From the NCBI GenBank assembly GCA_963843575.1, contig CAWJKZ010000017.1, forward strand, positions 224,001 through 288,000: a stretch of DNA of 64,000 nt. Reading direction: 5' to 3'. Made by a program: the position numbers and the translations under genes. Below the pieces are notes generated by a model that saw only the letters and a program-made list of their open reading frames with translations, had not been told where the DNA came from and did not search any database. Numbering within the stretch: the stretch's first letter is position 1; each line of letters starts with the position of its first letter. Positions 48,139-64,000 of this stretch are shown here, piece after piece. The stretch comes from an uncultured Acidobacteriota bacterium (GTDB lineage: Bacteria; Acidobacteriota; UBA6911).

Positions 48139-51100
48139 TTAGGTGCGGGGCGGCGATTCCTCCGCCCCCTGCCGCAGTTCCCACGGCCGGCCCGAGACGA
48201 GGTGGGTCCCGCACACGGTGACGGCTTCGTTCAGCTCGTCGTCCGTCAACGCGGTGACGCGCAGGCCCGTGATGCGGGCCAGCACCGCGTCGAGACTCGA
48301 TCCGTCCAGGAGCGCCAGCGGCAGCAGCGCCTTCAATCCCTCCCAGTCCGAGTTTTCCGGCGGCCACGACCAGCGTGCGGAAGTAGAGTCGAGGAATGCA
48401 ATGCGCATTTCGCGATCGGACATGGCGGCGAATTCATCGAGCACGAGCTTGAGGCTGGGCACGTCCCGCGCCAGCCAGCCCCGGCAGGCTTTGACCAGGC
48501 GCACCCGGTCCTCGCGGAACTTCGGGTCTCGAACATTCGACGCCCTCTTCAGTGCCAGGTCGGCCAGAAGCTCGACCCGGCCCTCGGGGTTGCCGATTTC
48601 AATGCAGCGGTTAGCCAGCGCCATGTAAGCCATGCTGATGTAACCAGAGTAACCGCTGGCAAGGGCTTCGGCTTCCCCTATCGCACAGAACGCTTCGGCT
48701 TTCTTGCCCTGCCGAAAAAGAGCGGCGGCGCGAGCGGAGCGTTCCCGCATCCTCGTGCCCCAGCGGTCGCAGGCGGCGCGTGCCTTCCCGAGATAGGCGG
48801 CCAGGACCGGGGCTTCCCGGTTGCGGCGCCCGCATTCCGCGAGCAGGACTGCGGCGAGGTCAAAAGTAAAAGTGACCCCTTCCCCCTGCATCGCGGCGCG
48901 CAGAATGCGACGGAGTCTCTGTCGGGCCCACGCCGGATCGGGCACCGCAAGCACGGCGAGGCTGATTGCCAGGAACGCGATGTCGCGGTAGCGAGGGTAG
49001 GGGTTTCTTTCGGCAATATCCAGCGCGTCCTCGATTTGGCCCCGGTCGGCGGAATCCCCGGTCAGCTTGCGCAGCGGCCCAAAATCCATGTCGAGACGCC
49101 CCGTGCGCTGCTCGTCCACCAACGAATCGTCGCCGTAGCCCGTGTCCGGGAGCAGCCCCTGCAGAACCTGCATCCTGAGGCTGTTGATGCGTTCGTCGAG
49201 AGTCGCGATTAGTTCCTGCCGCTTCCGGGCGTCGAGTGGTGCCTCTTTGCAGCACTCGACCAACTTTCCCGCTTCGGGACCGCGGCTGAACGCTCCGATC
49301 CAGACGGAGGGGGCGTCCGCGGTCGGCGCGAGGATGCGGGCAGCCCGGGTGAGCAGTGTCTCGCACAGGGGAAGAGTGTGGCTTGGCTGGATCGCGCAGG
49401 TCGCGGTTGCGGCCGTTACCGCCTCCTCGAGCTTCCCGGCCAGCGCCGCCTCCCAGGCAAGATAGGAGAAGACGACCCCTTCCCAGGCTCCCGAATGGCA
49501 CAGCAGCCTCGCCCAGGCGAGCGCTTCGGTAAAATCTCCTCTGTCGACGCACTTGAGAAGGTCCTCGGTGAGGCTGGCTCTGGGAGCCGTTTCACGGTAG
49601 GCGCCTGCGCAAGCCAGGGCCTTGACGGTGTGGTCCTGCTCGAGGGCGACATGCAAGGCCAGCCGCAGATCTCCGAGGGTGTTCTCTGGACGGCCGAGGA
49701 TCTCTCTCTGGGCCGCTCGGAATTGCGGATCGAGCACGAGGGAGTAAAGCTTGTCGAGCTGTCCGGCCGCCTTGAGGTGCTCGGCGTAGTGGCTCAGCGG
49801 GTAACTGCTCCGGTTGCGTTTCCAGTCGGCGCAGTAGGCCAGCAGCCTGTCCCGATACACCTCGGTTTTGATGCACTTGCGCATGTACTGGCGCAGGCGC
49901 GGGTGGGCGAGGGCATAGCCATGAGTGTCGTTGCCCACGACGAAGCGGCGCACCCGCTGCAGGATGTCCTCGAAGAAGTCCTGCCCCCAGTCGTTTACGA
50001 GGCTCGGGTTCACAGCCTCGAGATCCGACCTGAACATCGGGCCAAAGCAGGCCGTGAGGGTCCCGAAGAGATCGCGCGCCGGGGCGTCGCCGGCGAGTTG
50101 CTTGATTTCCTCCCACCACTGATCGAGATAGTTCGCCAGCCCCTGCGGTTGCGCGGCGAGATTCGCAGCGGTCAGCCGGCCATCGGCCAGGTCCTCCGCG
50201 AGCAGGCGCATGTAAAACGGATCGCATCCGAGGGTCGGATCGCCCTGGTACGAGGAGATCCGCACAACCTCGTCCAGCGCCGCGGAGTCGTCTGCGACCG
50301 CAGCGGCGGAGGTCCCGGCGGCACGAAGGACCGCGGAAACATCGGCGGTTGTCAGGCCCCCAAGTGGCAGGTGTTCCGTCTGGTGCGGCGGCATGCCGTA
50401 AATCGCCGACCAATCCTGACCCACATCCCGGACTGTCAGGATCAAGTGGAGCCTGGCCGGAAGATGGCGGCTAAGGTACGGCCTCAGCTGCCAGGTCGTG
50501 ACCTCGTCCAACCCGTCGATGACCAGGACGCGCATGCAGTCCAGGTACTCGTCCAGGAGCTTGTGATACAGCGCCCGCAGTTCGTGGACCTTTTCGGGGA
50601 TCGGGTAGGTGTGAGCGTGCCACTGGGCCATCTGCTGCACCACGTTGCGCAGGAAGAACTCCTCGCCGAGGCTTCCCGTACCGTAGAGAGGAGTGAAAAA
50701 ATGGTAAGCGAAAGCCTCCGGATTACGTTTGACGATATTGGCCATCAGGGCCGTTTTGCCGAATCCGGCCGGGGCGGTGATCATCAGATACCCCCCCGCG
50801 GGCCCGGCAGCGAATTCTTCCACGCGGGCCTGGATGTCTTCGCGGCCCGCGAAAAGAGCGGTCCGGTCGTCCAGGAGGGGGGCGAAGACCTCGCGCAGGG
50901 CTGGCTTGACCGGTGAGTACCGTTCTTCGGCCGCCGCAACCGGGGGCCCGATGCGCCACTGGTAGTGACAAACCGCGATGTCCAGGGCGAAGCGGAATGG
51001 CCTCTCCGGGCAGTCCAGCTGCTCGCGCCCGGCGGCGGCTGCGCGCTCGAAGGAAAGGACCCCGGGGTCCGTGCGTCCCGCGGCTTCGGGGACCCCCACG

Positions 51101-51636
51101 GGCAGCACCTTGCTCTGCGCGAAACCCGTGCATTCGACCGTGATGTAAGCGCCCCCGTCGACCAGCTCCCGCAGCGGGCCTGGATCGGTCATCGGCCCGG
51201 CCTGGAACAGTTCGCGCTCGTGCCGGTCGAGCGCGTTCCAGTCGCGCAGGCCGTGAGTGAGTGAGACGGCGGCAAACGCGTGCCCCTCGGTCACCACCAG
51301 AACTGGAAGCAGCTCGTTGCCCAGGCAGAGACCGCAGAAAAGTACGGCGAGGTCGAGGCACGTTCCCTCGCGGGGCGCCTCCAGGACGTCGGCAGGCCGG
51401 CGGATCGGCTGCAGGGCATCGGAGGGATGATACATCTCGGCGGCATAGCGGATCTGCTTCGCCAGGAGAGCACCGTAGATGGCTTCGACCAGACGGCGGC
51501 GTCCCTCGGGCTCGGCTGCCAAGTCCAGGCGGTTCACGGGCAAGCGGAGTAGTGTGACGGCGTCAGGCGTCACGAAACGCGCCAGTCCCCTCTCATCGAC
51601 CTTCGACCATTCCCTCGGAAACTCGGCGACCGGCAC
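48139..51636 (-). CDS. Transglutaminase-like (Cys-His-Glu) domain + STAND/NACHT-like NTPase + helical C-terminus
   Basis: EGTCLDLAVLFCG, EGHAF, VECTG; FAGRE, Walker A APAGFGKT, Walker B VLVIDGLDE, LILTVR, PFYMRL, YALAHPRLRQY; AAGGAG RBS before GTG. Confidence 0.85.
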   Translation of the reverse strand: MPVAEFPREWSKVDERGLARFVTPDAVTLLRLPVNRLDLAAEPEGRRRLVEAIYGALLAKQIRYAAEMYHPSDALQPIRRPADVLEAPREGTCLDLAVLFCGLCLGNELLPVLVVTEGHAFAAVSLTHGLRDWNALDRHERELFQAGPMTDPGPLRELVDGGAYITVECTGFAQSKVLPVGVPEAAGRTDPGVLSFERAAAAGREQLDCPERPFRFALDIAVCHYQWRIGPPVAAAEERYSPVKPALREVFAPLLDDRTALFAGREDIQARVEEFAAGPAGGYLMITAPAGFGKTALMANIVKRNPEAFAYHFFTPLYGTGSLGEEFFLRNVVQQMAQWHAHTYPIPEKVHELRALYHKLLDEYLDCMRVLVIDGLDEVTTWQLRPYLSRHLPARLHLILTVRDVGQDWSAIYGMPPHQTEHLPLGGLTTADVSAVLRAAGTSAAAVADDSAALDEVVRISSYQGDPTLGCDPFYMRLLAEDLADGRLTAANLAAQPQGLANYLDQWWEEIKQLAGDAPARDLFGTLTACFGPMFRSDLEAVNPSLVNDWGQDFFEDILQRVRRFVVGNDTHGYALAHPRLRQYMRKCIKTEVYRDRLLAYCADWKRNRSSYPLSHYAEHLKAAGQLDKLYSLVLDPQFRAAQREILGRPENTLGDLRLALHVALEQDHTVKALACAGAYRETAPRASLTEDLLKCVDRGDFTEALAWARLLCHSGAWEGVVFSYLAWEAALAGKLEEAVTAATATCAIQPSHTLPLCETLLTRAARILAPTADAPSVWIGAFSRGPEAGKLVECCKEAPLDARKRQELIATLDERINSLRMQVLQGLLPDTGYGDDSLVDEQRTGRLDMDFGPLRKLTGDSADRGQIEDALDIAERNPYPRYRDIAFLAISLAVLAVPDPAWARQRLRRILRAAMQGEGVTFTFDLAAVLLAECGRRNREAPVLAAYLGKARAACDRWGTRMRERSARAAALFRQGKKAEAFCAIGEAEALASGYSGYISMAYMALANRCIEIGNPEGRVELLADLALKRASNVRDPKFREDRVRLVKACRGWLARDVPSLKLVLDEFAAMSDREMRIAFLDSTSARWSWPPENSDWEGLKALLPLALLDGSSLDAVLARITGLRVTALTDDELNEAVTVCGTHLVSGRPWELRQGAEESPPRT

Positions 51637-51760
51637 CGCTTTCTCCTTGACCCATCCTGCACTTCCCCGCCAAGGGGAACCTGTCGAGTGCAGAGGGTGC
51701 GGAAAAAAACATCGCCGCCGCGTCGCGGACTGGGCGTCCCCGTGGCGGCGTCATTCTCTT

Positions 51761-63378: not shown

Positions 63379-63442
63379 TGGAGTGCGGCGACTCGCCGCC
63401 GCAATGTCGCGATTCGGGGTGGCGCCGAGGCGCCGCACTCCA
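63379..63442. repeat. REP-like palindrome (GGAGTGCGGCG type)
   Basis: TGGAGTGCGGCG (63379-63390) ... CGCCGCACTCCA (63431-63442); partial relatives near 14161 and 46205. Confidence 0.7.
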
Positions 63443-63453
63443 GATTGCCAACT

Positions 63454-64000
63454 TCAGGAGATCGCCTGCCGCAGTGCCGCCAGTGCGGCCACGAGGGGGC
63501 GCCGGTGCGTCGCATCGGCCCCGGCCTGCGCCATCTTTTCCAGGAAAGCGATATCTTCCGTCACGTTGCACGCCGGGCTGCCCTGCTGGACAGCGGCGAG
63601 ATAGCCGGCCCGGATTTCCGCCCCCGCCTGTTCGGAAATGGCCTGTTGCCGCAGGCAGCTCAGCAGCCGGTGATCGGCAGCCAGCCGCAGGCTCCAGGGC
63701 TCGTCGGCGTTTTGCCCCACGCCCGCGAGCCGTTCGAGATCCTCGAGTCCTCTTCCGATCCTTTCGAGGCGTTGATCGTATGTTTCCCGGTCGCTGCCGC
63801 GTGCCGGTTTCCGCCAGCCCAGGACAATCTCCGCCACGAGCTGATCCTTCAGGTACAGGCCGCGCGCGCTCATGGGCGCAGCGTCCTCCCGAAACGCTTC
63901 ACGGTAGCTGCTTGCCATAATCTCCAGGTGCTTGCGACAGCTTGCCGGATTCCGGGCGAGCGTCGCCCGCAGTTTGCCGAGGCGGCCCCTGAGGGAATGA
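63454..64000 (-). CDS. C-terminal part of a helical TPR-like protein (5'-partial; possibly CHAT-domain protein)
   Basis: The frame is open from the window edge: HSLRGRLGKL..MASSYREAF..DEPWSLRLAAD..IRAGY..VTEDIAFLEKM. The ATG at 63918 may be internal. Confidence 0.6.
   Translation of the reverse strand, partial: HSLRGRLGKLRATLARNPASCRKHLEIMASSYREAFREDAAPMSARGLYLKDQLVAEIVLGWRKPARGSDRETYDQRLERIGRGLEDLERLAGVGQNADEPWSLRLAADHRLLSCLRQQAISEQAGAEIRAGYLAAVQQGSPACNVTEDIAFLEKMAQAGADATHRRPLVAALAALRQAIS

Follow-up and report, generated by a model that had tools for sequence, protein, structure and literature searches.

A zinc metalloprotease paired with a putative MBL-fold nuclease in a probable mosaic of conflict-type modules in an Acidobacteriota genome

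According to the main text of Tuck et al. (2025, Science; bioRxiv 10.1101/2025.07.28.667249, PMC12799240), the metallo-β-lactamase (MBL)-fold genes of the Hachiman, AVAST, Lamassu and DRT defence systems encode pronucleases that carry insertions relative to ComEC. Activation of HamM, from Hachiman, by its partner trypsin-like protease was demonstrated there, and activation of Avs1a, from AVAST, and of the caspase-paired canu system (CanA/CanC) was supported by cut-site mutants. Pairings of α/β-hydrolases with caspases are among the conflict systems described by Kaur, Burroughs, Iyer & Aravind (eLife 2020, PMC7159879). Here we compare these systems with eight contiguous genes at positions 48139-64000 of a 64,000-nucleotide stretch of DNA (the window, C17:224001-288000) from an uncultured Acidobacteriota bacterium whose assembly spans 6.68 Mb in 27 contigs. 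Our main subject is the adjacent pair encoding an M4/M36-like zinc metalloprotease (PEP) and an MBL-fold hydrolase (MBL).

The original prediction had read the eight genes as a single sensor-triggered proteolytic cascade. ORF calling on the window returned the same eight long contiguous open reading frames (ORFs) in the three orientations first described, and a crude hydropathy check likewise found no N-terminus resembling a signal peptide or transmembrane (TM) segment in any of them. The motifs GFGKT, AHSMG, GSGYGG, HETTH, HEHWDH, SGHG and DSCHSG were confirmed in the window proteins. Domain calls for a STAND NTPase (STAND), an LCAT-like lipase (lipase), a GMC oxidoreductase (GMC), MBL and a caspase were supported by Pfam matches to NACHT/NPHP3_N, LCAT, GMC_oxred_N/C, Lactamase_B (weakly) and Peptidase_C14; PEP, an unnamed protein (UNK) and a very long lipase-CHAT protein (the giant) complete the set. 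No named system had been recognised, and PADLOC matched no complete known system. Very probably, the locus is not one system but a mosaic: some four conflict-type modules, each inherited separately, stand next to one another in a variable chromosomal region. We designate PEP-MBL, the sole tightly conserved unit, as module A, GMC-UNK as module B, lipase and STAND as module C, and the giant and the caspase as module D. The overall explanation that we favour, with reasonable but lesser confidence, is such a mosaic in which PEP-MBL is a protease-gated nuclease.

The PEP-MBL pair and its predicted complex

Module A comprises two co-directional genes with the following features.

58968-60881, plus strand: PEP, a 637-amino-acid (aa) cytoplasmic M4/M36-like zinc metalloprotease (fold model and motifs)
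59034-60290, plus strand: catalytic domain of PEP, residues 23-441 (AlphaFold2 (AF2) model and fold match)
59586-59600, plus strand: HETTH motif of PEP, residues 207-211 (alignment)
60889-62379, plus strand: MBL, a 496-aa ComEC-type MBL-fold hydrolase and putative nuclease, starting 7 nt after the PEP stop
61618-61845, plus strand: predicted PEP-contact patch of MBL, residues 244-319 (complex model)

The two genes were almost inseparable. We surveyed PEP neighbourhoods over ±10 kb where the contig allowed, taking one genome per species and keeping the best 80 of at least 529 relatives; neighbouring ORFs around PEP and UNK were called with a crude longest-ORF filter in place of a gene finder. 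MBL directly followed PEP in 79 loci, and in the remaining one the contig ended 50 bp past PEP. Closer to the window genome, 2 of 60 relatives matched PEP strongly and a third matched it weakly over part of its length, and in both class relatives that carry PEP, MBL alone of the window set accompanied it (2/2). Relatives of PEP were encoded in at least 529 of 597 pattern-matched stretches, from many bacterial phyla, Methanosarcinales and other archaea, and those in the 80 kept loci were 46-64% identical across phyla. A PEP profile search of 1.84 billion cluster representatives (50% identity) gave 5,488 matches at E ≤ 1e-3 and 1,761 at E ≤ 1e-30; among the best 150, 68 were at most 760 aa long, 28 measured 761-1050 aa and 54 exceeded 1050 aa.

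The AF2 model of PEP (predicted local distance difference test (pLDDT) 82.1, predicted template modelling score (pTM) 0.88) has a thermolysin/fungalysin fold. VIA matched residues 23-441 to the M36 protease 7qp3 (Z 17.8, root-mean-square deviation 4.2, 322 residues), LasB (Z 15.4) and thermolysin (Z 14.9); alignments to M36/M4 proteases spanned 284-322 residues, the whole mature two-lobe enzyme, and Foldseek assigned the fold a probability of 1.00. H207, E208, H211, H233, E234 and D238 were invariant in a 28-sequence alignment. The HExxH motif, the downstream Glu and the thermolysin fold that mark the M4/M36-like members of clan MA(E) were thus all found, as the original call of an HExxH zinc peptidase had it, whereas a Pfam Peptidase_M4/M36 match was not: PEP matched nothing in Pfam (E ≤ 0.01, so neither M4 nor M36), NCBIfam or PADLOC. 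Its neighbour clusters in the Atlas were mostly 'hypothetical', with M4 or M36 in only 11-29% of members. PEP shares the two-lobe fold of the whole mature enzyme with the secreted M4/M36 proteases, and its HExxH and the Glu in 'HEAFAD' align to the thermolysin-like 1npc (E 0.59, at motif level only). It differs from them in having no signal peptide or propeptide by crude hydropathy, an extra C-terminal region of ~190 residues (445-637) and an obligate pairing with an MBL gene. In the ESM Atlas list for PEP, the cluster at rank 26 has 76 members, ~502 aa long, M36/M4-like and 88% viral (Uroviricota), with a feature score of 0.92; phage-encoded relatives of the PEP-type protease may exist.

MBL carries the motifs HEHWDH (residues 92-97), NN (332-333), D354 and HHGS (396-399). 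HxHxDH (92-97), D354 and HH (396-397) were conserved at ≥90-95% in sets of 65 and 28 sequences; the larger set was made up of the window sequence and 64 ORFs of 420-620 aa, out of 77 in the MBL cluster. The Pfam Lactamase_B match was weak (E 0.0019), and the best PDB profile match was the ComEC-like 'Competence protein' 9ic4 (E 0.0024), with three motif blocks aligned. Between the first two blocks lie ~162 extra positions (MBL profile 82 to 312, 9ic4 chain 77 to 145), an insertion of ~160 residues between motif 2 and the NN motif (about residues 103-328). MBL thus shares the blocks GDC...HxHxDH, NNxSLV and KVxHHGS with the ComEC/Rec2 nuclease domain, at the weak sequence similarity just given, but is not part of a membrane DNA channel and has the additional ~160 residues. 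PADLOC matched MBL to only three defence models, LmuA (E 4.6e-12 over 107 of 345 profile positions), Avs1a and RTasMBL, which represent three of the four defence systems (Lamassu, AVAST and DRT) in the main text of PMC12799240. Judged by these motifs, MBL is a probable nuclease.

We predicted the complex of PEP residues 23-445 with MBL residues 25-496. Three runs gave interface scores (ipSAE) of 0.78, 0.79 and 0.78, compared with 0.00 for the best of three controls, agreed in ≥97% of contacts and had a pLDDT of ≥81 for the partners. Of 80 solved complexes, 58 reach the mark set for ipSAE, as do 2 of 110 mismatched pairs; this calibration is only rough here because our own alignments were used. 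The predicted interface joins residues 66-88, 107-109, 155-183 and 195-197 in the N-lobe of PEP with residues 244-319 of MBL, inside the insertion. Invariant PEP positions were over-represented at the interface (16/41 versus 83/382 elsewhere, P = 0.019, positions not being independent), and invariant MBL positions were not significantly enriched there (5/34 versus 39/438, P = 0.23). The PEP interface strands just before the HExxH helix presumably include the substrate-binding edge strand of thermolysin-type enzymes. The model supports binding of MBL by PEP without showing it, and we consider it likely that the two form a functional bound pair.

A mechanism can be proposed on this basis. MBL would be a nuclease held inactive by its insertion, by bound PEP or by both; upon a trigger, infection or some other stress, PEP would cut the insertion, and the freed DNase would stop the cell. 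Proteolysis of an insertion would then license the nuclease by the same logic as in the trypsin- and caspase-gated HamM, Avs1a and CanC. PEP-MBL probably represents a new variant of the protease-gated MBL pronuclease pairs, one that employs a metalloprotease, and the chances that it serves as a protease-gated nuclease in defence or cell death are about even. More tentatively, and on balance somewhat doubtfully, PEP-MBL may represent a large undescribed immune or cell-death family of Bacteria and Archaea, with at least ~1,800 clusters, in which a zinc protease is pre-bound to its nuclease through the insertion and activates it by cleavage. PEP would either be the sensor itself or take its signal from a partner (a fused S8 subtilase, TPR-S, a caspase or a patatin), and the cassette would be self-contained, needing no helicase, STAND or SMC sensor.

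Several observations weigh against a proteolytically gated defence pair. The HExxH residues are not in the predicted interface as listed, and stable binding would not by itself amount to cleavage. The likeness of MBL to defence MBLs is limited to its N-terminal ~110 positions, and its similarity to the pronuclease families lies far below their curated cut-offs (20 versus 420 bits for Avs1a, NF041809; 19.8 versus 220 for 6A-MBL, NF058524). The Avs1a model was also weakly matched in 11 of 14 control genomes, so that MBL is at most a candidate member of that clade; a search of its own genome for the Avs1a family, which returned only an unrelated weak match, was uninformative. A search of viral contigs (IMG/VR) with PEP patterns gave 21 pattern matches and no PEP relative. 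Finally, classical defence genes were few near PEP-MBL. In a set of 85 upstream co-directional ORFs, PADLOC recognised 10 families, with 'subtilase' (6) the most frequent; these 85, out of 135 ORFs, lay on the plus strand, measured 150-1100 aa and ended at most 2.5 kb before PEP, a survey that left out 3 longer plus-strand ORFs and all minus-strand ORFs.

Co-occurrence of the eight families

The other window families were rare around PEP. In the same 80 loci, STAND occurred in none, lipase in 1, CHAT in 2, and caspase, GMC and UNK in 3 each. Around 80 metagenome relatives of UNK, tblastn placed GMC next to UNK in 22 and detected MBL in 2, PEP in 1, and lipase, STAND, caspase and CHAT in none; an alignment query was used to gather these loci, a single-sequence scan having given none. 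STAND was found in 0 and lipase in 1 of the 400 other genomes in a phylum sample, and caspase in 2 of 136 other genomes of the class. None of the genes from STAND through caspase, PEP included, was found in a same-genus genome, G001 (81% complete). Because the families are not co-inherited, they do not make up one conserved system, and nothing points to a cascade through all eight genes set off by STAND.

The proposed cascade therefore fails for the set as a whole, its families not co-occurring around either PEP or UNK relatives. The accompanying analogy with Avs1 (STAND plus MBL) fails too, because the constant partner of MBL is a metallopeptidase, not STAND, which lay near PEP-MBL in 0 of 80 loci. 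As in Avs1, a STAND with a protease-like N-terminus and an MBL do lie within the same 15 kb of the window, but they occupy opposite strands and are separated by 9 kb and four genes, and an Avs1-like reading is ruled out by the co-occurrence counts.

The multi-protease theme of the original prediction fared better. Proteases and lipases are repeatedly joined to PEP-MBL elsewhere, and the pair itself is best read as a protease that acts on a nuclease; the partners are interchangeable and form no eight-gene unit. Among the 71 loci with at least 1.7 kb upstream of PEP, an S8 subtilase was present in 18, and in all 18 it was in frame and continuous with PEP, giving fusions of ~1,180 aa followed by the MBL gene (L019, L039, L043, L046, L047, L049, L051, L060, L062, L064, L065, L070, L072, L074, L081, L085, L086 and L087). 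Patatin was found in 9 of the 80 loci, immediately before PEP or after MBL, and astacin-like or M6-like peptidases in about 3. Locus L077 has the order caspase, PEP, MBL, astacin-like peptidase; its caspase is 47% identical to that of the window, and only L077 and L044 have a caspase upstream of PEP-MBL and co-directional with it. A CHAT-TPR-S protein lies 6 kb from PEP-MBL in L020, and TPR-S and Amidase_2 domains form further N-terminal fusions to PEP. The multi-protease theme is thus a real tendency of the PEP-MBL cassette, with interchangeable partners.

Some of these arrangements argue against strict independence of the modules. In the window, GMC-UNK adjoins PEP-MBL, divergently. MBL is followed by GMC, a 176-aa ORF and UNK in three Pyrinomonadaceae loci (L039, L043, L046) and by GMC, a small ORF and UNK in a metagenome locus (L120), and in another metagenome contig GMC-UNK lies within 6 kb of PEP-MBL. 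Caspases lie at most one gene from PEP-MBL in 3 of 80 loci, and the PEP of L083 carries a fused LCAT-like domain. The window genome shares little synteny with G001 overall, so the absence of genes there shows variability, not a clean insertion. Some wiring between neighbouring modules is possible.

That wiring is the substance of the alternative that survives best, which we nevertheless consider unlikely: PEP-MBL would be a core to which the caspase, GMC-UNK and perhaps the lipases are true accessories, supplying extra effectors or activating proteases as in canu or Lamassu, with STAND and the CHAT giant independent. The recurrent caspases, including the co-directional one of L077, the GMC-UNK arrangements of L039, L043, L046 and L120, the LCAT-like fusion, the patatins and the S8 fusions all speak for it, as does a rough, uncomputed estimate that chance adjacency of such rare families should be well below 1% per locus. 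Yet each accessory occurs in a small minority of loci, the three GMC-UNK cases from Pyrinomonadaceae may represent one event, and UNK is usually without PEP-MBL (78-79 of 80 loci). Neither the caspase nor GMC-UNK forms one operon with PEP-MBL in the window itself, the former being convergent with it and the latter divergent from it.

Ordinary physiology is improbable; on this view, the genes would serve lipid or sterol turnover and regulated proteolysis or the quality control of proteins, and MBL would be a hydrolase with RNA or small molecules as substrates. GMC is nearest to a cholesterol-oxidase model (E 3e-53), LCAT-like lipases act on lipids, few known defence genes lie near PEP-MBL, and the other neighbours of UNK include phosphoesterases, GH25 and a peroxidase, although these were hand-picked. 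Against this stand the score of GMC against that equivalog (181 bits versus a cut-off of 850), the fusions to TIR, NACHT, CHAT, S8 and TPR-S, the lack of signal peptides on enzymes whose classical relatives are secreted, the patchy distribution suggestive of horizontal gene transfer combined with high conservation across domains, and the absence of the genes from close relatives.

One integrated system, in which STAND senses an invader and a transglutaminase-like, metalloprotease and caspase/CHAT cascade unmasks MBL, lipase and oxidase, is very improbable: all eight genes do carry conflict-type domains and lie between ordinary genes, protease-to-nuclease activation is known in other systems and multi-protease combinations recur around PEP-MBL, but STAND was missing from all 80 PEP loci, 80 UNK loci and 400 phylum genomes, lipase appeared in only 1, 0 and 1 of these, PEP-MBL lacks the other six genes in most loci, and the genes run in three orientations.

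The remaining modules and their surroundings

Module B lies divergently from PEP.

53285-54160, minus strand: UNK, a 291-aa protein of an unnamed family (ORF to 54220, 311 codons; relatives start at the ATG at 54160)
54237-58703, minus strand: GMC, 1488 aa, with a GMC oxidoreductase at residues ~1-560 (GSGYGG at 24) and a 930-aa tail (Pfam)
58704..58967, no strand: divergent intergenic region between the GMC arm and PEP, 264 bp (from ORF coordinates)

GMC matched both Pfam halves of the oxidoreductase above their cut-offs (GMC_oxred_N, E 7e-14, 52.7 bits; GMC_oxred_C, E 1e-10, 42.7 bits). Its 930-aa tail had no Pfam match and no internal repeat detectable by BLAST; the nearest Atlas cluster was a 541-aa hypothetical protein from Acidobacteriota, and one weak relative occurred in L129. 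The true start of UNK is probably 54160, because its relatives are 291 aa long. These relatives numbered 431 at E ≤ 1e-3, nearly all of 289-296 aa, unnamed and with no Pfam family. In the UNK model (pLDDT 91.8), residues 1-94 form a transthyretin/CnaB-like β-sandwich (Z 8-10.5); in the C-terminal domain (residues ~100-291), which carries invariant His and Asp residues, searches were filled by the N-terminal sandwich and gave no clear structural match. Fused relatives are rare; they carry an N-terminal TIR_2 domain (P0069) or an N-terminal region of ~200 aa with a hydrophobic segment (P0061, P0063), and hint at an immune or signalling role. GMC was the commonest neighbour of UNK. Where the contig left room, it lay immediately upstream in 16 of 39 loci, compared with 2 of 33 downstream, and GMC-UNK is a recurrent pair. 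Forty hand-picked co-directional neighbours other than GMC, which serve as illustration only, were diverse hydrolases and oxidases, including the phosphoesterases, GH25 and peroxidase mentioned above.

Module C forms the left end of the locus.

48139-51636, minus strand: STAND NTPase, 1165 aa (Pfam NPHP3_N/NACHT; GFGKT at 291)
50944-51498, minus strand: transglutaminase-like/ProA-like N-terminal domain of STAND, residues ~47-231 (weak profile matches)
51761-53209, minus strand: lipase, a 482-aa LCAT-like α/β-hydrolase (Pfam; AHSMG nucleophile motif at residue 157)

The P-loop NTPase of STAND (residues ~262-440) matched NPHP3_N at 25.5 bits (cut-off 24.8) and NACHT at 25.6 (cut-off 26.7). Its C-terminal half is helical and weakly TPR-like (TPR_2, E 0.02), so that the P-loop, N-terminal effector and C-terminal repeats of a STAND NTPase are present, the repeats being only weakly TPR-like. 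The papain-like or transglutaminase N-terminus proposed for it received weak support from the tools (Transglut_core, E 0.074; DUF553, E 0.097). The same region matched the NCBIfam 'anti-phage ProA' model (E 3e-14; 51 bits versus a cut-off of 1500), a name for which we found nothing usable in the literature and no occurrence in a STAND survey preprint. By eye, it has GTC...GHA...VECT motifs, with Cys replaced by Ser in the relative P0124. Among 189 relatives of STAND residues 1-460, the NTPase half is common to proteins with TIR or trypsin N-termini and WD40 or TPR C-termini, an effector-swapping pattern, read from sequence, of NLR-like sensors.

The lipase matched LCAT (E 9e-14) as well as PGAP1 and DUF676. 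Longer relatives numbered 282 at E ≤ 1e-3. Of the 120 listed, we counted 99 with CHAT; NACHT, AAA_16, TIR, kinase or S8 domains are present in a few, and the Pfam 'ternary complex associated domain' in some. In P0194, the lipase (48% identical) precedes a region that aligns with STAND residues 10-393 at 37% identity (E 7e-58), and in P0124 the lipase (45% identical) precedes one that aligns with residues 9-220 at 42% identity (E 1e-35). The window genes lie 124 bp apart in the same order as in these fusions. We read lipase and STAND as the split form of a single lipase/transglutaminase-like/NTPase polypeptide, which would act as an NLR-like sensor with a lipase effector.

Module D lies on the far side of MBL and continues beyond the window.

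62402-63265, minus strand: caspase (C14), 287 aa, stand-alone (ORF to 63571; Peptidase_C14, E 2e-24; SGHG and DSCHSG dyad motifs)
63376-63457, no strand: repetitive extragenic palindrome (REP)-like short interspersed repeat in the caspase/CHAT intergenic region, with 42 further matches in the genome and outside every module
63454-64000, minus strand: C-terminal 181 codons of the giant, a 1805-aa gene reaching the window-equivalent position 68871 (C17:292871; contig extension)

The caspase probably starts at 63265, because its relatives align from residue 2. It is convergent with MBL at a distance of 22 bp and matched the PADLOC caspase model (E 1e-6). Extending the contig past 64000, a check that had been proposed, completed the eighth gene and added a fourth protease domain (CHAT) and further lipase-like domains. 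The gene had been described as TPR-like; a weak TPR-S match (E 0.0032) agrees, but the protein is far more than that, with two DUF7379 domains, an LCAT-like lipase (E 2e-7) and a CHAT protease (E 1e-34) in its 1805 residues. In G001, the corresponding gene (L174:17282-19930, contig C18) encodes 882 aa, 82% identical over residues 1-858, and lacks CHAT-TPR-S, and a 991-aa neighbour is retained beside it. Because the congener's version is without this half, the CHAT half in the window genome appears to be a lineage-specific addition or loss. Two genes lie between the CHAT gene and the 991-aa gene (L009:7124-9413; C17:293124-295413), one of 412 aa with a TM-like N-terminus and one of 349 aa with a signal-peptide-like start; G001 has neither of them at the corresponding site, and 286 bp separate the two flanking genes there. 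The giant, perhaps together with the small caspase, would be an α/β-hydrolase/caspase-type module of the kind described by Kaur et al. The small caspase may belong to module D or be an accessory to PEP-MBL.

The locus is flanked on one side by genes for an outer-membrane barrel, a Kelch protein, a histidine kinase, a β-galactosidase and a permease, and on the other by a Ser/Thr kinase gene. Its GC content resembles that of the rest of the window except at 46-48 kb, where it falls to 0.554 (46000-48000). Here, the ORF at 46755-47117 (minus strand) is a mere fragment of Amidohydro_2 (profile positions 161-247), and 46690-47837 is 90% identical to contig C12 of G001, compared with ~77% for neighbouring matches; this segment may be a recently moved or decaying piece at the left edge of the cluster. 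No tRNA genes were found in the window. We do not claim a clean island insertion: no tRNA was present, GC content was ordinary and synteny with G001 was broken generally. A scan for consensus promoters and terminators performed at chance level (2 versus 2.7 and 11 versus 13.0) and was uninformative on operons. Copies of the REP-like repeat (query 977-1058 of window:62400-64000) occur on many contigs of the genome, and G001 also has many. Large OMP_b-brl_4 outer-membrane barrels with CarboxypepD_reg N-termini are encoded at 20386-23922 of the window and near PEP-MBL in the acidobacterial loci L073, L075, L090 and L093; their recurrence probably reflects lineage-typical gene content.

Comparison with described systems

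Parts of the locus resemble the conflict systems of Kaur et al., as described in the text of PMC7159879. The 1805-aa giant joins LCAT-like and CHAT domains in one polypeptide, and the locus shares with those systems an LCAT-like domain fused or adjacent to CHAT, a TPR-S sensor and, in STAND, an exchangeable N-terminal effector slot (TIR, trypsin or transglutaminase-like). The ternary systems described there have a vWA-MoxR, VMAP or GTPase core, none of which was seen in the window, which is therefore not one of those. Nor is a canu reading of the window caspase and MBL supported, their genes being convergent rather than co-directional with the caspase upstream.

As a caution, the locus illustrates that conflict-type domains can cluster densely because independent modules have accreted, without making up one machine. 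The UNK family, sometimes fused to TIR, and the split or fused lipase-STAND pair are testable leads, and a two-protease cascade could be dissected in its natural form in the S8-PEP fusions. The PEP-MBL family is missing from Pfam, NCBIfam and PADLOC 2.0, and naming it would annotate thousands of 'hypothetical' genes. If our proposal for PEP-MBL is true, the principle of protease-gated pronucleases gains a third, metalloprotease branch beyond those of serine and cysteine proteases, and zymogen-like nuclease activation exists as a free-standing two-gene cassette across most prokaryotic phyla, methanogens included.

The pronuclease pairs, namely HamM/protease-HamA, Avs1a/Avs1, LmuA-H, DRT-MBL and CanA/CanC, remain the closest described relatives of PEP-MBL. 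A metalloprotease partner is not named in the main text of either version of PMC12799240, whose figures and supplements may show such a clade, and we found no published metalloprotease-MBL defence pair in the literature, a point on which the same supplements may bear. Set against the pairs in that main text, PEP-MBL has intact metal-binding motifs and the constant adjacency of a ComEC-like MBL to a protease gene (79 of 80 loci and both class relatives), and lacks a trypsin-like or caspase partner and a match to the curated sequence models (Avs1a, 6A-MBL and LmuA). Both kinds of pair have insertions relative to ComEC and occur in mobile, varied contexts, and in canu, as in PEP-MBL, the nuclease gene lies downstream of the protease gene. 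They differ in the protease, trypsin-like or caspase in the described pairs and an M4/M36-like zinc metalloprotease here, and in its form, PEP being free-standing (~640 aa) or fused to S8 and not to HamA, Avs or LmuA. PEP-MBL has no constant helicase, STAND or SMC neighbour, unlike the known pairs. Where PMC12799240 describes two short disordered loops, the PEP-MBL model has a single insertion block of ~160 residues lying on the protease.

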